DNA from: Promethearchaeota archaeon
Lineage (GTDB): Archaea > Asgardarchaeota > Hermodarchaeia > Hermodarchaeales > Hermodarchaeaceae
Assembly (NCBI GenBank): GCA_048938295.1
Contig: JBHLMI010000004.1
Coordinates: 1-32,000, forward strand
Length of the DNA stretch: 32,000 bases
Direction: 5' to 3'
In this document: in pieces, positions 15,816-29,649 of the stretch
Layout: the number at the start of each line of letters is the position of its first letter
Numbering within the stretch: position 1 is the stretch's first letter
The notes under the pieces: generated by a model
The model's input: only the letters and a program-made list of their open reading frames with translations
Told to the model about the DNA's origin: nothing
The model's database searches: none
Program-made: the position numbers and the translations under genes

Positions 15816-16141
15816 CAACCGTCTAATGAAAAAAGTAGTTGTCCACTCAAGCTAACCATTACAGCACCCGTGTTTTTGGTATTAAACGGTATACGGATGG
15901 TTGCCTGTTTTCACTTTCACTGAGGGGTGTTAAACGATTATAAGGTTCCAGTTCGGAACAGGGGAAGAGAAACACTGGGCTGGGCATTCCCGCTGGAAAA
16001 CCATTAGCTATAATAGGGGACACCGCACACATCTTCACCGAAGACCTCCCCTTCGGCTATGCCTCCGAATACTTTCAGCGAGGTCTCCCCATCCAATGTA
16101 TCTATCATACACACTTGCATGACCTTTCGGAAGGAAGCACC

Positions 16142-17080
16142 ATGCCCTCAGAACTTGAAAAAATCGAGGGCGTCGGACCCACCGTCGCCCAAAAACTCGA
16201 AGAATGCGGCTTCCGCACCATCGAAGGAATCGCCGCTGCCTCCGTCAAAGAACTCACCAGCCTAGCTGGTATTGGGGCTAGCACTGCTCAGAAAATCATT
16301 GAATCCGCCCAGCGGCTCGCTAGCATCGGACTTGAAACCGCAGATAAGCTTTGGAAGAAACGCCAAACTATCGAACGCATCACAACTAACAGCCGTGAAC
16401 TTGACGCTCTCCTCGGCGGAGGTATCGAAACGGGCAGCATGACCGAATTTGCTGGCGCATTCCGTTCTGGGAAAACCCAGCTATGCCACCAACTCGCTGT
16501 CAACGTCCAACTCCCCCCAGACCAAGGTGGATGTGACGCCACCGCAGCTTACATTGACACCGAAGGCACGTTCCGTCCCGAACGCATCATCAACATGGCC
16601 CAAGCCAAAAACATCCCCCCCAACCAAGCCCTCAAAAATATCATCGTCGGTCGCGCCTACAACAGCGACCACCAAATGCTCCTCGTCCAACAAATCCAAG
16701 ACAACCCCCAATTCGAAAAAGTCCGCCTCCTCATCGTCGACTCCCTCATCGGCCACTTCCGCGCCGAATACCTCGGCCGCGGCATGCTCGCCGAACGCCA
16801 ACAAAAACTCAACAAACACCTCCACGACCTCCTCCGCGTCGCCGAAATCAACAACATCGCCGTCATCACCAGCAACCAAGTCCACGCCCAACCCGACGTC
16901 TTCTTCGGTGCGCCTGACCGTCCGACCGGGGGCCATATTGTCGCACATGCTGCACAGACGCGGATTTACTTGCGTAAAAGCAAGGCAGAACGTCGGATTG
17001 CGACATTAATCGATTCACCCTACTTACCAGAAGGTGAAGCCCTCTTTACCATTACACCCCAGGGCATCGCTGATGCTTAA
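16142..17080 (+). CDS. radA: RadA/Rad51 recombinase (likely start ATG 16142)
   Basis: N-terminal HhH domain, [12 protein letters not shown], Walker [40 protein letters not shown]. Confidence 0.93.
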
Positions 17081-17117: not shown

Positions 17118-17525
17118 CTAGATTCGGATGGTCATCCATCGAACACGTTTTGCCTTCACCAACTCCGCAATATTTCGTTCGTTCGTACTGAGTTGAGCGT
17201 TCCCTGTTTTGATGTCAAGAAGGACTACTTCAGTGGGATTGTTCCTGCTGTAGCCATCGAAGACAATGTAATCAACGGGCGCACCAATAAACCGAGCGTC
17301 AGCAGGCTCGAAAGGAAATGCAGCAAGTAGTGGAGCCATTTGTTCGCCGATCTTGCCTTTCAATACAGCACGACTTTTACTCAAGGCATCTTTGCGGATG
17401 CGGTCGGTTTCTTCTTGGATGCGTTTGCTGACACGGAGTTCGATTAGTCGTCTTTGATAGTAGATGTAGAGAATGAGACCAATGATGACGAGGATTAGAA
17501 TTCCGATGGTGAGTTCGAGGAGCAT
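17118..17525 (-). CDS. Holliday-junction-resolvase-like endonuclease (Endonuc_Holl type) with N-terminal TM
   Basis: SRAVLKGKIGEQMAP...RFIGAPVDYIVFDG...DIKTG; ATG 17525 has SD GAGGTGG. Confidence 0.85.
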   Translation of the reverse strand: MLLELTIGILILVIIGLILYIYYQRRLIELRVSKRIQEETDRIRKDALSKSRAVLKGKIGEQMAPLLAAFPFEPADARFIGAPVDYIVFDGYSRNNPTEVVLLDIKTGNAQLSTNERNIAELVKAKRVRWMTIRI

Positions 17526-17605
17526 GCTTCCACCTCTCTGGTGAAAGGGTATTCCCAGCGGGATTGATATACTCCACGAAAGGTGCTTCAGAGAGGGTTC
17601 CAAGG

Positions 17606-18814
17606 CTAGTCGAGAAGGCGTTTTTCGCCTTCAAGCGCGCGAATGTCAGTGACGTCTTGTGTGACTTCTAGACACCCGATATACTCATTCTTGCTGTCAT
17701 GAACTGCAAAGTATCGGATGTAGATGAGACGATCTTTTAGGTTAATCCAGAATGCAGCAGTCTCCCGTTTACCTGCACGGAAGTCGTCAAGGATCTGTTG
17801 AACTTTGTGGAGGCTCTTTTTGGGGTGACAGGCTTGGACAGTACGTCCGATGACGGCATTGGTTCGAACGAAGATTCGTCTTCCAGATTCACTATAGAAT
17901 TGGACTTTATCGTCTTTATCAACGAAGGTGATGTCGACTGGCAAAGTATTGAAAATGCCTTGAAGAACCTCATGTGACAAGGTTCCAGTTTCAAATTGAA
18001 GCAGTTTCTCCATGATTTTACTAACCTCAGGTTTTTTTAGTTGAGGTGTTTCGACGAGGAAAGGTTTGGGAGTGAAAAAGCTATAACCAATTTCATCAAA
18101 TTCTTGACGAATCTGAGACCACTCCTCAGCAGCAATGACCCGGAGACCAGATGGAAACAGGATGTTGTTTTCCTTTTGAAAATGACTGGCGAGCTTCTCA
18201 GCAAGTTCTAAGGAAATATTATCGAGTTGAGAAACGAATTTACGGTGATCGGTCTTGTCAGGTGACTCGATAAGAGCATAGAGTTGTTTTTCGATAGCGC
18301 GAATTTCGTCGTGTTCAGCCCACATGATTTTCGGAGGCTGGGTGATTCCATGTTTCTCAAGGTAGGGAAAGAGAACGTTCTCCTCTCTGAGATAGTGGTT
18401 TTCGGATTCACGGAATCGTGATACTTTTTTCTTCAGTGAGTCCCATTGTGGTTTCGCCTCATCATGAGTGTCAAATCCGAAAAGTTGTTTCGTAAGTTCT
18501 TGTACCGAGAAGGCATTCTTTAACAAAAGATTATGTTCTTCCATGAGAATCCAGATCGGATGAGAGGTGTCTAGATCGAGGTGAGTTGATTTTAAAGCGT
18601 CTTGGAATGCAGCGAGATGAACATCACATAATGCACGAATTTCTTCTGCGGGCATTCCTTCCTTGATGAGTTCTTCTTCAATTTGAGCTATTTCCAGAGG
18701 GCTGCAACTGGCGAGTAGATCGCCAAACTTGGATTTCATCTGTTCAACATTAGCCCCATCATGCAATGCCTTGATGATTCCTTTAAGAGTCTCTTTACGT
18801 CGATCCTTGGTCAT
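17606..18814 (-). CDS. DUF438 + hemerythrin + PAS domain protein
   Basis: IIKALHDG...LCDVHL; HYLREENVLFP, HFQKENNILFP; LPVDITFVD...CHPKKS. Confidence 0.9.
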   Translation of the reverse strand: MTKDRRKETLKGIIKALHDGANVEQMKSKFGDLLASCSPLEIAQIEEELIKEGMPAEEIRALCDVHLAAFQDALKSTHLDLDTSHPIWILMEEHNLLLKNAFSVQELTKQLFGFDTHDEAKPQWDSLKKKVSRFRESENHYLREENVLFPYLEKHGITQPPKIMWAEHDEIRAIEKQLYALIESPDKTDHRKFVSQLDNISLELAEKLASHFQKENNILFPSGLRVIAAEEWSQIRQEFDEIGYSFFTPKPFLVETPQLKKPEVSKIMEKLLQFETGTLSHEVLQGIFNTLPVDITFVDKDDKVQFYSESGRRIFVRTNAVIGRTVQACHPKKSLHKVQQILDDFRAGKRETAAFWINLKDRLIYIRYFAVHDSKNEYIGCLEVTQDVTDIRALEGEKRLLD

Positions 18815-18904
18815 GTTATTTCATCCAATCAAACTATCTAGCGGTTAACTTTGCATGAAGTTGAATTCTAAAGACACTTCCGTTTTATAATACCTGCGGA
18901 AATC

Positions 18905-19567
18905 TTAGGGAGGCTTGAGGGAAACGCCACATTTGTGACAGTATTGAGATGTGGCATCGATTGTTTTGGCTCCACAGTTCCAGCAGAATCTAATCGTGAC
19001 ATCATTGTCAGTACTTGGAGGGGGAACAGTGGGCTGTGGTGTAAAATCCGTCTCGACAGGAGGGGGAGAGAAGAGGGGTTGCTGTGCTTCGACTTGCATG
19101 ATGGTGTCATGGATTACAGAGGAGATTTTACGTTGTCCGGTCCCATGTTCTGGACACCGGATATCTAGCAGTTTGAAGCTTCCTGAGGTTTTGGTACTTT
19201 CAAGGGTGACTGGAGTGCCACACTTGAGGCACCGCATTAAGTTCTGTTTGATGACAGGGGCGTAGGCAGGGAGGTTTTCAAAGAAGAAAGAATATTCTCC
19301 CTCACCTGGGTGATCGGGGCAGACGAGCTCGAGTTTCACTAATCCTTCATTACGCATCTTCGCTTGAGCTTCAGCAAGCTGGTTATGAATTTCTCGTTGG
19401 AACTCATCAGGATCTGTTTGTGAGAGTTTGCGGTGTTCTTTTTCAAGAGCTTCACTGGCGGTTCGTTCCATGAAGCTAAGTTGGGTTTTTCGAATCACTG
19501 CCTTGATGGCGCGTGGATTTCCGCCCTTCGGGCACGCAATTTCTTTCACGATGGTTTCTACGGACAT
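18905..19567 (-). CDS. Multi Zn-finger protein with C-terminal double zinc ribbon
   Basis: CPKG, CPDH, CLKC, CPEH, CWNC and CHKC motifs; Pro-rich linker. Confidence 0.8.
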   Translation of the reverse strand: MSVETIVKEIACPKGGNPRAIKAVIRKTQLSFMERTASEALEKEHRKLSQTDPDEFQREIHNQLAEAQAKMRNEGLVKLELVCPDHPGEGEYSFFFENLPAYAPVIKQNLMRCLKCGTPVTLESTKTSGSFKLLDIRCPEHGTGQRKISSVIHDTIMQVEAQQPLFSPPPVETDFTPQPTVPPPSTDNDVTIRFCWNCGAKTIDATSQYCHKCGVSLKPP

Positions 19568-19641
19568 AGCAAAGTAACCTGAATACCTCTATTGATTGAT
19601 TTAGGCTATAAAAGCCGTGGGTGTCCTGCTGATTGAACCTG

Positions 19642-20841
19642 TTAGGTTTGTCGCCGTCGAATCAGGACAACTGCTACTACACCAACAACCACGGTAGCAG
19701 ATATGGCTGTGACACCGAGTATCAAAGGCAGTAACTGTGGTTGATATTGTGCTGCGGGGATGATATAGTCTTCAACAAGATGCATTGGGTTAAACTCTGA
19801 ACTTCGGGCAGTGAAGACGACGACCATATCCTGGTCTGGAATGACGTAGATGTGTTGGTTCAAGTGGCCATGTGCGGCAAAGGATCCGATGTTGGGGTGG
19901 ATCCACCATTGGTAGCCGTATTCAGTTTGACTATCTACAGTGGCATGGCCAATTGAGGAAGCAGCTACCCAGGAAGCAGATACGATTTGTTCTCCATCCC
20001 AGGTGCCGTTATGGAGGTAGAGGAAGCCAAACTTAGCCATGTCTCGGGCTCGAAGTTGGAGGGCTGAGCCACCATTGACATTGCCTTGTGGATCTCGGGA
20101 CCAATAGTAATCCGTGATGCCAAGGGGTGCAAACAAATTTTCCTCAGCAAAGTCCTGTGTGGACACGCCGGTTGTTTCATGAACAATGGCTGAGAGGAGA
20201 TGTGAACCGCCGGTGTTATAGACCCAATGTGAACCGGGTGTATAAGCCATAGGTCGATTAATGACGAATTCCACCCAGTTGAGACTTGTCGTCATGCGAT
20301 CCCAGTCATTGTTTGGATTTCCATAAGGGTAGGTCCATTCATCCCAAGGAAGGCCAGAAGTCATTGTCAATAGGTGTTCAACGGTAATCGCTTCTTTTCG
20401 GCTGTCCAGGTTTTCAATGGTGAGATGAGAAAAGATATCCACAAGTCGATCGTCAAGATTTAGATAGCCTTGATCGATTGCGATGCCGATGAGAGCTGAG
20501 CTTATACTCTTGGTGCAGGAATAGATGTTGCTGGTTATGTTTACACGGTCTGGGAGCTCCATGTAGTTTTCATAGATAAGATAGCCGTGGCGGACAATGA
20601 GGATGGACCGTAAGGTGAAGCTCCATAGTTGACCATCAAGGTATTGTTCCATTTGCCGCAGCACGATAGAATTTACGCCCTGAGACTCTGGAGTCGCCGA
20701 TAACCAGTCCTCAGTGGGCCAATAGTCAGGAACAGTTGATTGGGCTTTCGCAGGTACCATTTCAGGAACGATGAAGAGTGAAATAAGAAGAAGCAGGAGA
20801 AGTGATCCCATCACAAATCGTTCGAGCTTCATTGCTATCAT
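19642..20841 (-). CDS. Beta-lactamase-fold (class C/NylB-like) serine hydrolase, secreted and membrane-anchored
   Basis: SCTK (SxxK), HLLTMTSG, WVYN, YGYQWW; signal peptide and C-terminal TM plus RRR. Confidence 0.9.
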   Translation of the reverse strand: MIAMKLERFVMGSLLLLLLISLFIVPEMVPAKAQSTVPDYWPTEDWLSATPESQGVNSIVLRQMEQYLDGQLWSFTLRSILIVRHGYLIYENYMELPDRVNITSNIYSCTKSISSALIGIAIDQGYLNLDDRLVDIFSHLTIENLDSRKEAITVEHLLTMTSGLPWDEWTYPYGNPNNDWDRMTTSLNWVEFVINRPMAYTPGSHWVYNTGGSHLLSAIVHETTGVSTQDFAEENLFAPLGITDYYWSRDPQGNVNGGSALQLRARDMAKFGFLYLHNGTWDGEQIVSASWVAASSIGHATVDSQTEYGYQWWIHPNIGSFAAHGHLNQHIYVIPDQDMVVVFTARSSEFNPMHLVEDYIIPAAQYQPQLLPLILGVTAISATVVVGVVAVVLIRRRQT

Positions 20842-20972
20842 CCATAGTTTTGAGGGTCAATCCTCAGTGATAAAGTTAGAGATAGTAACTGGTTGGGAAA
20901 ATAACAAGAAATCCATTAGCTGATACCCATTTCCGCAATCATCGGTTCGGAAAGCCGAATGGGTTCACCAAA

Positions 20973-21713
20973 TTAGAGGTAGACGATCTGAGTGGGTTTC
21001 TGGCCAAATAGGAGCATGTATCGGCTATTGGCAGGGATTGGTCCCTGAGCGAGATCCTCTTCCAATCGAGTAAGTCCAGCCTGGAAATCTCCTGGAGAGA
21101 TGAAATGTAAACAGGAAAACGCCTTGTTCCTATACGCTTCAATGTCTGTCAGCTCATACGAGAATTCTGCCTGTATCTGTTTGATGTTGCGAAAACCAGC
21201 GTCTTCCATGCGTTTCCGGAGAACGAGGAGTGATGGGTATCGTTCGAGGTCAATTGTGATTGTGTCGGGAAAATAGAAGGCAAGCGGGCGACGAGTTCGA
21301 ATAATTTCTTCTGAATCAGTGACTGTACAAATACGTCCTCCTGGTTTTAGTATTCTAAAAACTTCAGAAAAATATGGAATAATATCTTTGAGGTGGTGGA
21401 TTAAATCGACAGAGAATACAAAATCGAAGAATGCGCCCTCGAATTGAAGGGAAGAAGCGAGCCCCTGGCTAAAGACAATATCAGGAGACTGCTGCCGGGC
21501 TTGAGTAAGCATTTGTTCAGATGCATCGACTCCCCATGCCTTTGCAGCTGTTGCAGTGTGGAAGGCATGGATGTAATTGCCTGTTCCACATCCAACTTCA
21601 AGGACATTTGAGTCATGCTGAACTTCGCTAATGGCAATGAGTTGTTTCAAAACCTCAGGATGCACCTGACGATGGCGCTGATATTCCTGAGCAAATTCAT
21701 CGTAGTTGACCAT
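20973..21713 (-). CDS. Class I SAM-dependent methyltransferase
   Basis: VLEVGCGTG, GVDAS, FDFV, RILKPGG. Confidence 0.9.
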   Translation of the reverse strand: MVNYDEFAQEYQRHRQVHPEVLKQLIAISEVQHDSNVLEVGCGTGNYIHAFHTATAAKAWGVDASEQMLTQARQQSPDIVFSQGLASSLQFEGAFFDFVFSVDLIHHLKDIIPYFSEVFRILKPGGRICTVTDSEEIIRTRRPLAFYFPDTITIDLERYPSLLVLRKRMEDAGFRNIKQIQAEFSYELTDIEAYRNKAFSCLHFISPGDFQAGLTRLEEDLAQGPIPANSRYMLLFGQKPTQIVYL

Positions 21714-21847
21714 CGAAGTTCAGATAGTAAAGGTTCTTGGCTTCTATTTGGAGTTTTGGTCAAAGTATCTAGTATGATGGAAAGTATGTTCAATTGAAAA
21801 GACTTAATCCCCTCTTGTTGCTGCTGAAATCCGAGGAAGAATAGCAG

Positions 21848-22009
21848 ATGACGTTTGAGAAAAGTGAGTCTGATGAGTTCATAATGTATGAGGAAGAACC
21901 GTCAAGGCGTAGAAAAGCAATCGGCTGCTGTGCGATTCTAATAATCATTATTTTCTTCGTTGCGCTGCTAGTCGGTTACACACCCTGGTTTCGACCCTTC
22001 TATCCTTAG
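21848..22009 (+). CDS. 53-aa single-pass membrane micro-protein
   Basis: MTFEKSESDEFIMYEEEPSRRRKAIGCCAILIIIIFFVALLVGYTPWFRPFYP; SD GAGGA; acidic, then basic, then TM organisation. Confidence 0.7.
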   Translation: MTFEKSESDEFIMYEEEPSRRRKAIGCCAILIIIIFFVALLVGYTPWFRPFYP

Positions 22010-22058
22010 CCAGCGACTCCTGACCTATTGACAGTGTATATAACAAGAATGGAAGTGG

Positions 22059-22210
22059 AACGGCTCCCAGGACACCCGAGTTGGACCAAGAGGTCAGGGA
22101 TTGGAGCTTTTCGGTCCAGAGATCCAAGGTTTTCCAATGCTTGGGGCCTACTGCTGGTGGACAACGGATTTTCGGAAAGCCGGAAATTCGGATGTCCGAT
22201 GGGAGCCGTT
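22059..22210 (+). ncRNA. Candidate structured non-coding RNA (strand uncertain)
   Basis: ~23-bp closing helix between the two ends, three internal hairpins, TATA-like GTATATAA at 22036-22043; no credible protein ORF. Confidence 0.55.
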
Positions 22211-25880: not shown

Positions 25881-26279
25881 CGTAGAGTAACACATCAAAC
25901 GAAGTTGGAGGTGGAAGAATTCCAAGCATGACCCCATAAAATACTAAGGTGACACCAAATGAGAGAGGCGTGCTCAACACCGGCACTAGTCCCACCCACC
26001 CTACAACGGTTAATGCATTACACATGAATCTTCGTCGGTATAGTATCACAATCCAGACAATAGACTCAATGTAAGTACTTCATGTCCAACTTACATTAAG
26101 ACTTGTAAGAAGAACCAATACCCCCGGATAATTCCAAACCAAAACCCCATTCATCATCTCTAGCAGAGTCCCAACTCCCTGAGGGGTAAATACCTTACAG
26201 AGATGGAAGGTGTATTCTTAATTAACTACTTTACTATATAGGAATCGTAGAGAGGCAGAACTAGCTGGTGTTATCACAA

Positions 26280-26726
26280 ATGAGTTTGGAGGAATACAAG
26301 AAAAAACGCAACTTTACGAAAACCACTGAACCCAAACCCGAAGTGAAACCAGGTTTAAATCAAATCTATGTAATCCAACGCCATCAAGCCCGAAACCTGC
26401 ATTGGGATTTACGTTTGGAGCGAGATGGCGTACTCGTCAGCTGGGCAGTACCCAAGGAACCACCGAAAGAGAAAAGCGTTCGACGGTTAGCAATCCAAAC
26501 AGAAGATCATCCTATAGAGTACGGATCATTTGAAGGGAAGATACCCGAAGGTGAATATGGAGCGGGGACCGTTGAGTTGTGGGACACAGGGAAATATGAG
26601 ACGGAAAAATGGGAAAAGGACGAAATCATTGTTGAAATAGAAGGCAGGCGATTACAGGGCAGGTATTGCCTGATTCGGTTTAAAAGGGTTGAAAATGGTT
26701 GGCTTTTCTTCCGGTGTGGCGAGTGA
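26280..26726 (+). CDS. Stand-alone LigD 3'-phosphoesterase (PE) domain protein
   Basis: [12 protein letters not shown]...[15 protein letters not shown]...SWAVPK...EDHP...[12 protein letters not shown]. Confidence 0.92.
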
Positions 26727-27693: not shown

Positions 27694-29649
27694 TTAGTCG
27701 TCTTCTTCTTCATCGTTTGTGAAGTCGACTAATCGTTTTTGATGTTCCGCCTGTCTTCGGGTTTTGAGTTCCGCAAATTCTTCACTGAATGGTTCACCGA
27801 CGTCATCGGAAAGATAAGCATCGAGATGATAGGATGTTTGACTCGGAAATTTAATATCAAGAGGGACTAGAACCTGTTCAAAAGCCATTGCAAGTTTTCT
27901 AACATAGTCATTGATGTCGATTTCTTCTTTTGTTGCCATCTGTGTAGGTTTCACGGTGAACATCCGGGGGCCATACCGAAAAGGATTCACTTTGACAAAT
28001 CCGATTTCAGCACGTTTTTTGACTTTAATCCCCTTGTCACTGAGTTGTTGAAGCGCCTGATAGGGTTGAGCTAACGCCGCGTTCTTACCTCGTTCTTTAT
28101 CAGCTTTCCAAACCTTGACCCGATATTCTAACTCTTCAACTTTGAAGCTGCGTCGCCTTAGCCGAGTTATTTCCCGCTGTAAAATCTCAATAATTTTCTG
28201 AGAGGCTTCTGTGAGTTTTTGGGGAGTGTCAATACCTGCAAGAGGTTTAACTGCTTCTAGAAAGATTTCTCGGAATCGCAGAGGGGTACTGGATTTGCCT
28301 AGCGTAATCCCTTTGATATCAGGGGTTCCGTCGGGGAGGATGCCGAAGTATGCTTTTTTGGCAGAGCTGAAAACACAGAGGGAATAGACTGCATCCACAG
28401 CGAGTTTCAGTTTCAATTCGTCTCGAACAATTTCAATTAGCCAGTTGATTTGTGGGGAGGTAGGCTTATCGAGGAAGATTGAATCGGTATCGCCATATAT
28501 TGGATGCATCCCATGTTCAATGGCTAGATCCCAAGTTGTCTGAAGTGCCCACCGACCATAGGCCATCATGGATTCCGCTAATGGGGGGCTTGCAAGCCCA
28601 TGTATCCGGATGGTCACGCCACCACTACTAACTAACAAGAATTTGAGAAGATCGGAAATGGTTTTAGCCTTAGCGCGTTGGTCTGAATCGAGGGTTTTGT
28701 GACGACTCTGTGGTTTGAACCAATGAATCCGTAGATCCTTTAGAGCTCCAATCAGGGCACTGAAAATCCCCCGTCGATGATTACATACGTAGTGGGGCTC
28801 GTTAGGGACCTTGAATGAGTAACAATCGCTATGATCACAGTCCATTGTTTCGTAGGAGAGGTTGTAAGTGTCAATGAGGCTGGGGTAAAGAGATTCGAAG
28901 TCCAACACAGTCATGTTGTAATAGACCCCAGGTGTAGGTGCAATGGTCAACGCTCCTTCAACGCGATGAGGAGTATGGCCCTTTGTTAATTCGTCAGGAT
29001 TGGGGATCAGAATACCTAATTTGCGGTATGTGGTGTTAAGCATGGAGCGAATCCAGTCGGAGACACTTCGGCTAGTAAGCGCCCGTTTGAAAGGGATGTT
29101 GGCAATCCGCGCAAGCATCCAGGCCCACAGCATTTTAGATTCATCATAGGTGGAATCCAAGTTCATGAGGTCTTGGGGAATGTCGGGAACAGGTTGAACC
29201 ATATACCGAAAATATTCCTTCAGGAATTCGTATTTTAGTGGGTCTTGATCGGCTGTCTCAACAAAAACCGATTCGAACTCCTTCAATTGTTTTTGGGGGA
29301 GTTGCAAATCGAGTTTATATCCTGTTTCAGACTTAACGTGGGGGCACCCAAACCGTTGATCTTGATCGTAGACACAACTGAGTCCGGGTTTGATATCTTT
29401 CTCCCATTCTCGATCTGCTTCAACGGTAGCCTCTAAGGGGATGCGCGCAACGTTGATGAACTCGTCTTTCATCAGATCTTTTCGTTGAACTGATACACCC
29501 AGACTTGCAGGCTGTACATAGTAATAGGGTTGGAAATCTTTTTTGACCGTTGTGAGGGTATTTGAGGGAGTTTGGAGGAAGGTGAGTAAGACCACTTGGT
29601 CGGCATCGGAAAAAACTGCATCTAATAACCAGTAACGATTCGCCGACAC
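27694..29649 (-). CDS. polB: Family B DNA polymerase (archaeal PolB1-like) lacking the 3'-5' exonuclease domain
   Basis: DFESLYPS (motif A) and YGDTDS (motif C) intact; motif B reads KFLLVSSGG; no Exo I-III motifs; 651 aa. Confidence 0.85.
   Translation of the reverse strand: MSANRYWLLDAVFSDADQVVLLTFLQTPSNTLTTVKKDFQPYYYVQPASLGVSVQRKDLMKDEFINVARIPLEATVEADREWEKDIKPGLSCVYDQDQRFGCPHVKSETGYKLDLQLPQKQLKEFESVFVETADQDPLKYEFLKEYFRYMVQPVPDIPQDLMNLDSTYDESKMLWAWMLARIANIPFKRALTSRSVSDWIRSMLNTTYRKLGILIPNPDELTKGHTPHRVEGALTIAPTPGVYYNMTVLDFESLYPSLIDTYNLSYETMDCDHSDCYSFKVPNEPHYVCNHRRGIFSALIGALKDLRIHWFKPQSRHKTLDSDQRAKAKTISDLLKFLLVSSGGVTIRIHGLASPPLAESMMAYGRWALQTTWDLAIEHGMHPIYGDTDSIFLDKPTSPQINWLIEIVRDELKLKLAVDAVYSLCVFSSAKKAYFGILPDGTPDIKGITLGKSSTPLRFREIFLEAVKPLAGIDTPQKLTEASQKIIEILQREITRLRRRSFKVEELEYRVKVWKADKERGKNAALAQPYQALQQLSDKGIKVKKRAEIGFVKVNPFRYGPRMFTVKPTQMATKEEIDINDYVRKLAMAFEQVLVPLDIKFPSQTSYHLDAYLSDDVGEPFSEEFAELKTRRQAEHQKRLVDFTNDEEEDD

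Follow-up and report, generated by a model that had tools for sequence, protein, structure and literature searches.

An exonuclease-deleted family of PolB1-type DNA polymerases in one Asgard lineage and part of Bathyarchaeia, with a proposed extender or repair role

We analyzed a 32,000-nucleotide stretch of DNA from a Promethearchaeota archaeon of the GTDB family Hermodarchaeaceae (assembly GCA_048938295.1, contig JBHLMI010000004.1, positions 1 to 32,000; hereafter the window), focusing on a reverse-strand gene for a 651-residue family-B DNA polymerase (PolB). The protein is composed of the N-terminal domain of archaeal PolB1, a short linker where the 3'-5' exonuclease domain would be, and a complete palm, fingers and thumb. 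It belongs to a discrete family shared with part of Bathyarchaeia, and its sequence suggests that it is probably an active, DNA-templated polymerase without proofreading, tethered to the sliding clamp and used in a specialized role of the extender or repair type. The gene and its features are as follows.

27694..29649, reverse strand: whole gene of the 651-residue exonuclease-less PolB1-type DNA polymerase, with a GTG start and the stop codon within the span.
29182..29649, reverse strand: first segment of the PolB N-terminal domain (residues 1-156), homologous to PolB1 up to the ExoI strand.
29134..29181, reverse strand: linker (residues 157-172) in place of the ~190-residue 3'-5' exonuclease domain with ExoI-III.
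27835..29133, reverse strand: second segment of the N-terminal domain (from the MLARIANIP helix) with palm, fingers and thumb (residues 173-605).
28879..28905, reverse strand: motif A, LDFESLYPS, with catalytic D250 and steric-gate Y255.
28783..28839, reverse strand: C271-x-H273-x2-C276-x12-C289 cluster, a possible metal site.
28618..28644, reverse strand: motif B, KFLLVSSGG (residues 336-344).
28570..28599, reverse strand: GLASPPLAES after motif B, with A353 where PolB1 and PolB3 have a conserved Tyr and PolB2 has Gly.
28480..28497, reverse strand: motif C, YGDTDS (residues 385-390), with catalytic D387 and D389.
28348..28362, reverse strand: AKKAY, the KKxY primer-terminus motif; it retains K431, K432 and Y434, with A430 and A433 in place of the Arg and Asn of PolB1.
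27808..27831, reverse strand: YHLDAYLS (residues 607-614), a PIP-like motif (after the PCNA-interacting protein box) that aligns with the PolB1 C-terminal LxxF[FL].
27721..27741, reverse strand: QKRLVDF (residues 637-643), a further PIP-like motif that closes a charged, disordered extension.

A Pfam scan of the protein identified PF00136 as the sole domain (residues 185-594, E 5e-24) and gave no match to the exonuclease domain PF03104. The closest solved structure by sequence was Saccharolobus PolB1 (Sso Dpo1, 1s5j; E 5e-61), with only residues 175-602 of the query aligned, to chain residues 396-827. The same structure was the top PDB fold match of the AlphaFold2 model (predicted local distance difference test score, pLDDT, 87.6; predicted template modeling score 0.81), in which disorder was confined to the tail (605-651); this structural alignment began at model residue 1 and covered 504 residues (Z 35.5, root-mean-square deviation 3.2 Å; model 1-605, chain 46-864). 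The top NCBIfam model was the PolB1-type NF004417, at 338 bits against its cut-off of 780, and the PolB1-type models NF004419 and NF004415 likewise scored far under their cut-offs. The structural match and the NCBIfam ranking bear out the likeness to PolB1 proposed in an initial annotation made from the sequence alone, and the residues and coordinates quoted there (MVQPVPDI at 150-157, D250, DTD at 387-389, KFLLVSSGG, and C271, C276, H286 and C289) were all exact on recomputation.

The profile of 57 family sequences split in two on 1s5j: residues 4-165 matched chain residues 14-198, up to the ExoI D-I-E strand, and residues 170-614 matched 391-840, leaving Sso PolB1 residues ~199-390, which bear ExoI-III, without a counterpart. 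Against 26 full-length PolB1 proteins, hhalign gave a probability of 100 over 605 columns, and the ExoI-ExoIII block of PolB1 was again unmatched. The remnant of the ExoI strand reads N-L-D where PolB1 reads D-I-E, pLDDT falls to 81-85 in the linker region, and the PolB1 'DPLxIGG' loop of the N-terminal domain is shortened in the hhalign and 1s5j profile comparisons, which may hint at a lost uracil pocket. A Bathyarchaeia N-terminal query matched the N-termini of PolB1 open reading frames (ORFs) of 850-950 residues (E 1e-12 to 1e-4). The clean deletion of the proofreading domain claimed in the initial annotation was thus confirmed by Pfam, hhalign and the profile split, with the break no more than a few residues from the site it named. 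In the alignment, the deletion boundaries were identical in Asgard and Bathyarchaeia members, which argues for one deletion event. A search of the genome (2.5 Mb, 91.6% complete) for PF03104 returned PolB1 as the single match, ruling out a split gene with a separately encoded PolB-type exonuclease.

A search of 1.8 billion cluster representatives placed the protein in a discrete family of seven 50%-identity clusters (E ≤1e-114), aligned end to end at 614-656 residues, below which the next matches were PolB1 proteins (E 4e-75) aligned only from residue ~165 on. Family members are about 610-665 residues long and labeled in NCBI only as 'DNA polymerase domain-containing protein'; the named relatives comprise Hermodarchaeota-type Asgard metagenome-assembled genomes (MAGs) at 54-87% identity and many Bathyarchaeia at 38-46%. 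A single query made of the first 170 residues recovered the gene from all 18 further genomes in the window's GTDB family and from none of 282 genomes in 29 other Asgard families. It was present in at least 19 of 201 sampled genomes, about one in ten, of the class containing a closed Bathyarchaeota chromosome, and each of three closed Bathyarchaeota chromosomes carried a ~900-residue PolB1 together with a 635-640-residue exonuclease-less copy. The IMG/VR search returned no family member, and a virus or mobile-element origin was set aside on that result.

The ratio of nonsynonymous to synonymous substitution rates (dN/dS) against the closest ortholog was 0.10; for the polymerase domain it was 0.068, for the N-terminal domain 0.148. 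A disrupted frame in relatives had been named as the mark of a decaying paralog; the relatives instead showed an intact frame under purifying selection. One ortholog (locus L014, G110:C73) is broken after the DFE of motif A by ~30 unrelated codons and 99 N; the interruption looks like a gap in the scaffold, or bases withheld, and not like a frameshift, and lies at the same site as a PolB1 intein. In addition, the polymerase-bearing contigs of loci L048, L049 and L075 are filed as bacterial MAGs (Acidiferrales, Krumholzibacteriaceae, Acidoferrum); they are probably mis-binned, since the tree places L048 and L049 within Bathyarchaeia clades (it did not include L075).

The catalytic and active-site residues D250, E252, S253-P256 (including steric-gate Y255), R307, K312, K336, G344, Y385-S390, K432, Y434, K446 and K452 were invariant in the 57 family sequences, so that the catalytic D250 and DTD387-389 are intact throughout, as had been proposed for the single protein. 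E252 in motif A is family-specific, PolB1 having Ala there. Nine residues conserved in PolB1 are switched and fixed in the family (K260D, N340V, Y353A, I369L, V383P, R430A, N433A, V530Y and K581D), and four of them (N340V, Y353A, R430A and N433A) bring a smaller or non-polar residue into or near motif B and KKxY. Motif B reads KxxxVS[SC][YG]G in the family, KxxxV[VS][SC]FG in PolB2 and KxxxNA[ST]YG in PolB1, and PolB2 sides with the family rather than with PolB1 at three of the nine switches (Val340, a small residue at 353 and Leu369). The initial annotation had motif B losing both Asn and Tyr. The loss of Asn holds family-wide (Val340 in at least 95% of the family, Asn in 100% of the sampled PolB1), whereas the change of Tyr to G343 is limited to the Asgard branch, Bathyarchaeia members retaining VSSYG. 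Positions 340, 343, 353, 430 and 433, judged by RB69 and KOD structural work, would contact the nascent base pair and primer terminus.

The proposed Cys/His cluster stood in part. C271-x-H273-x2-C276-x12-C289 is invariant in the family, so the three cysteines were correctly named, but the conserved histidine is H273 and not H286. The same set is at least 90% conserved in the 26 full-length PolB1 proteins, and the cluster is therefore inherited from PolB1, not new. C-x-H-x2-C-x12-C is absent from the crystallized Saccharolobus PolB1 sequence though at least 90% conserved in PolB1 generally, where it may form a metal site in the palm domain; in archaeal PolBs, no metal-binding domains were known before the C-terminal domains of B6 and B10 (PMC7544198).

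Every family member ends in a PIP-like [IL]-x-x-[WFY]-[FLIM] motif, which lines up with the PolB1 C-terminal motif (SIDSFF in 1s5j and RLDTFF in the genome's own PolB1); in the window's protein this is YHLDAYLS, with a short helix predicted at 607-613. The Asgard branch alone carries an extra disordered, charged extension closing with Q[KRQ][RQ]LxD[FY], here QKRLVDF. Both tail motifs are conserved, and their likeness to the Q/x-x-x-[LIM]-x-x-[FYW]-[FLY] motif of PCNA-binding archaeal polymerases makes them putative PCNA-binding sites.

Trees were built from the polymerase-domain columns (~430) by quick searches under the LG+C20+F+G4 model with posterior mean site frequencies. The family was monophyletic with a support of 100 in the Shimodaira-Hasegawa-like approximate likelihood ratio test (SH-aLRT), on a stem of ~1.0 substitutions per site, and grouped with PolB1 at 99, apart from PolB2 (nine sequences, support 100) and PolB3 (support 99); the phylogeny among PolB1, PolB2 and PolB3 suggested in the initial annotation thus joins the family to PolB1. 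The free trees nested it near TACK PolB1 with weak support, and a constraint to PolB1 monophyly was slightly better than the free tree (approximately unbiased, AU, test, p 0.70). The family would accordingly either descend from PolB1 or be its sister. Forcing a clade of the family with PolB2 worsened the log-likelihood by 27 (AU p 0.0465), a borderline rejection of that union. A tree of named sequences joined the Hermodarchaeota-type clade (support 100) to one Bathyarchaeia-labeled subclade at 91, and the main Bathyarchaeia clade (support 95) stood apart from this grouping, a pattern that is compatible with gene transfer between the Asgard lineage and Bathyarchaeia but does not prove it.

The window's genome also encodes PolB1, PolB2, the PolD subunit DP2 and a Y-family polymerase. 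Its PolB1, a 1675-residue ORF, contains two inteins and has a normal exonuclease domain, and its PolB2, of 737 residues, reads HGIVDC in motif C and KWLLVVSFG in motif B. Among the Bathyarchaeia, PolB2-like genes occurred in 11 of 19 genomes with the exonuclease-less family and in 63 of 182 without it, counts that are descriptive only, the genomes being related to one another and many of them incomplete; Y-family genes were present in all three closed Bathyarchaeota genomes. As no anticorrelation with PolB2 was seen and Y-family polymerases are also present, the family is an addition and not a substitute, and replacement of PolB2 or of the Y-family polymerase was ruled out. Coexistence with PolB1, PolB2, PolD and a Y-family polymerase points to an additional, specialized role. 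The PolB1 ORF lies outside the window, on contig C53 at ~17150-22170, and its inteins interrupt motif A (DFA|C...N|SLYPS) and motif B (KVFLNA|C...N|SYGV).

Archaeal PolB1 is thus the best sequence, profile and fold match of the family, sharing the N-terminal domain, motifs A (DxxSLYPS) and C (YGDTDS), the CHCC cluster, the thumb and the C-terminal PIP-like LxxF motif. The family differs from it in lacking the whole exonuclease domain, in the motif-B change of Asn to Val, in the nine fixed substitutions and in its long stem, and it coexists with a true PolB1. A plausible functional analogue, by comparison, is PolB2/Dpo2, another extra PolB beside the replicases, which likewise lacks proofreading and carries motif B K-x3-V-[VS]-[SC]-[FY]-G, a small residue after motif B and L369. 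PolB2 acts as the translesion 'extender' of the PolB2-iRadA-PPB2 mutasome (PMC8764526, PMC11791011), and Dpo2 is a robust, exonuclease-less enzyme that is accurate on undamaged DNA and efficiently extends mismatched and post-lesion termini (PMC8764526).

The proposed mechanism draws on these comparisons. Without a 3'-5' exonuclease domain, the enzyme would have no proofreading, and the residues expected to serve phosphoryl transfer and deoxynucleotide selection are all kept (D250, Y255, R307, K312, K336, D387, D389, K431/K432 and Y434). The substitutions N340V, Y353A, R430A and N433A, two of which match PolB2, would loosen geometric checking at the nascent pair and primer terminus, and such loosening could bring tolerance of imperfect primer termini or templates, as in the extenders PolB2/Dpo2 and Pol zeta. 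The polymerase would be tethered to PCNA by the PIP-like motif at its C-terminus, of which the Asgard branch has two. It would then extend past mismatches or lesions, or fill gaps during repair, and would not serve bulk replication. Given the PolB2-type residues and the biochemistry of Dpo2, an extender or repair role is the best-supported reading, and we hold it to be probable. The 'error-prone' character suggested in the initial annotation does not follow from the sequence, as PolB2/Dpo2 shares the Val of motif B and copies undamaged DNA accurately (PMC8764526).

Several observations weigh against this role. The neighborhoods carry no repair signal, consisting of hydrolases in Hermodarchaeota-type genomes and LipS1/LipS2 in Bathyarchaeia. 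A lesion-tolerance function would be partly redundant, since PolB2 and Y-family polymerases are already present. The roles given to positions 340, 343, 353, 430 and 433 are putative ones, drawn from work on RB69 and KOD structures. Finally, the family member P0124 (617 residues, from the representative search) carries the PolB1-type motif B KLLLNASYGV, its nearest relatives having KLFLVS[SC][YF]GV; reversion, gene conversion with PolB1 and chimeric assembly are possible explanations.

A more specific version of the extender role is offered only tentatively. The polymerase might be a stand-alone mismatch or lesion extender that works without iRadA or PPB2, having become PolB2- or Pol-zeta-like by convergence from PolB1 or being the surviving canonical relative of the PolB2 ancestor; exonuclease loss and the four contact changes would suffice for this, and the gene would have moved between Bathyarchaeia and one Asgard lineage.

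The main rival is a replication-associated helper, performing for example Pol-alpha-like primer extension or Okazaki gap filling while PolD and PolB1 carry out bulk synthesis. The family's derivation from the replicase PolB1, its housekeeping-type, single-copy retention in all genomes of the window's GTDB family, the lack of damage-response neighbors and the coexistence with PolD would all suit such a helper, and an inactive exonuclease is also a feature of the eukaryotic PolB Pol alpha (PMC7544198). Set against this, Pol alpha makes no use of PCNA, to which the PIP-like tails point, and a presence in only about one-tenth of the sampled Bathyarchaeia and one Asgard family would be odd for core replication; archaeal primase, moreover, is reported to make the DNA part of primers itself (PMC8782868). 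We regard a replication helper as rather unlikely.

Somewhat less likely still is that the family is an exonuclease-deleted, catalytically canonical sister of PolB2 that works like the mutasome polymerase. The motif-B Val, the small residue 353 and L369 are common to both, and the AU test rejects their union only marginally. A replaced first Asp of motif C (H-G-x-x-D type), with a D(K/R) motif, is the hallmark of PolB2 (PMC7544198), and PolB2 mostly has this replacement (HGIVD[SC] in the window's phylum), whereas YGDTDS is invariant in the family; this motif-C criterion alone does not exclude PolB2, because basal TACK PolB2 can keep DxD (PMC11791011). PolB2 also keeps a decayed exonuclease fold, of which the family has none, and the PolB2 ORFs here span 737-801 residues against ~650. 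The free trees placed the family with PolB1 and PolB2 separately, an arrangement that long-branch attraction would not favor, as it would promote union with PolB2 rather than hinder it. The PolB2-type NCBIfam models NF004416 and NF004418 scored 74.7 and 61.7 bits here, whereas they reached 384 and 363 on the genome's PolB2, and the PolB1 model gave 338 here. In addition, neither the genes flanking the polymerase in the window nor the Pfam-scanned recurrent neighbors in 50 related loci included an iRadA-like (RecA/Rad51-family) gene; a PPB2 neighbor was not seen either, although no model was at hand for recognizing this small protein.

It appears improbable that the protein has lost catalysis and persists as a structural or regulatory paralog for binding DNA or other proteins, in the manner of the C-terminal half of Pol epsilon. 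Motif B is non-canonical, lacking both Asn and Tyr in the Asgard branch, and inactivated PolB paralogs do exist (PMC7544198). A dead enzyme would, however, have no need of the metal-binding, steric-gate, finger Lys/Arg and KKxY residues that do not vary among the 57 family sequences of the two phyla, nor does the dN/dS of the polymerase domain fit such a paralog; PolB2, once called inactive on weaker grounds, proved active (PMC8764526).

The initial annotation also considered terminal-transferase-like activity and a link to mutational patches in radA. A hypermutator or terminal-transferase-like enzyme behind local patches of this kind is highly improbable, being favored only by the absent proofreading and by a distance of 10.6 kb between the polymerase gene and radA (16115-17080, forward strand). 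The template-dependent architecture is fully kept, including the template-binding N-terminal domain, the fingers and steric-gate Tyr255, and radA is canonical with an intact Walker A. The radA-polymerase spacing of 10-17 kb is kept only in same-genus genomes, as in ordinary synteny within one genus, and Bathyarchaeia members show no radA linkage. Window positions 16001-17000, covering radA, have a GC content of 0.553 against ~0.45 around them, with a GC skew of -0.26, an AT skew of +0.22 and a patch of C/A-ending codons. The radA anomaly is a strand-compositional, third-codon-position bias and not a mutation track tied to the polymerase, and the proposed link to radA is left without support. 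A decaying pseudogene, partial gene call or assembly artefact is already refuted, given that closed chromosomes and dozens of MAGs carry complete, uninterrupted ORFs of equal size, that the deletion boundaries agree in both phyla and that dN/dS is 0.10, with no support found for it beyond the one interrupted relative, which the run of N explains.

Comparable losses of proofreading are known from other PolBs. Pol zeta (Rev3) and Pol alpha are B-family enzymes that work without proofreading, and Pol zeta extends mismatches and lesions (PMC8764526, PMC7544198); they differ from the present family in their retained, inactivated exonuclease fold, canonical motif B, Cys-rich C-terminal domains and B-subunits. 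In the protein-primed PolB of Mavirus-like virophages the exonuclease domain is also reported to be wholly lost (PMC11161782), but this is a viral enzyme of an unrelated PolB assemblage. The literature searched contained no description of an exonuclease-deleted PolB1 group, and the group appears neither in the PolB survey defining B1-B10 (PMC7544198) nor in a recent paper on the Asgard replication machinery (PMC12680538). Cellular PolBs without proofreading (Pol alpha, Pol zeta and PolB2) normally retain a dead exonuclease fold, whereas here the domain is gone and the core is canonical. The family thus supplies a naturally occurring 'minimal PolB1' with which any contribution of the exonuclease domain other than proofreading can be examined, and its PolB2-type residues in motif B and the hinge, on a PolB1 background, allow a direct test of which residues make an extender. 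It is a fifth polymerase in one Asgard lineage and part of Bathyarchaeia, may record gene transfer between them, and as a compact, exonuclease-free archaeal PolB scaffold could interest enzyme engineers.

In the window, the polymerase gene lies downstream of a same-strand gene for a 592-residue membrane alpha/beta-hydrolase; a convergent FAA-hydrolase gene faces it, with 1 bp between the end of the polymerase gene and that gene's stop codon. This gene order recurs only in close relatives. In 16 Bathyarchaeia loci (L034, L035, L042, L044-L047, L050, L059, L060, L063, L065, L068, L070, L075 and L077), the polymerase directly follows a same-strand LipS2 lipoyl-synthase gene, with LipS1 divergent upstream in most; CoA transferases and a lipoate ligase are other conserved neighbors, and the LipS genes have no obvious functional link to the polymerase. 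The conserved neighbors are metabolic, and a repair operon was ruled out. Two genes from the polymerase, the window also encodes a stand-alone 152-residue LigD 3'-phosphoesterase (26268-26726, forward strand; PF13298, E 3.5e-41), an arrangement shared by the Hermodarchaeota-type loci L030 and L032 and not by Bathyarchaeia.

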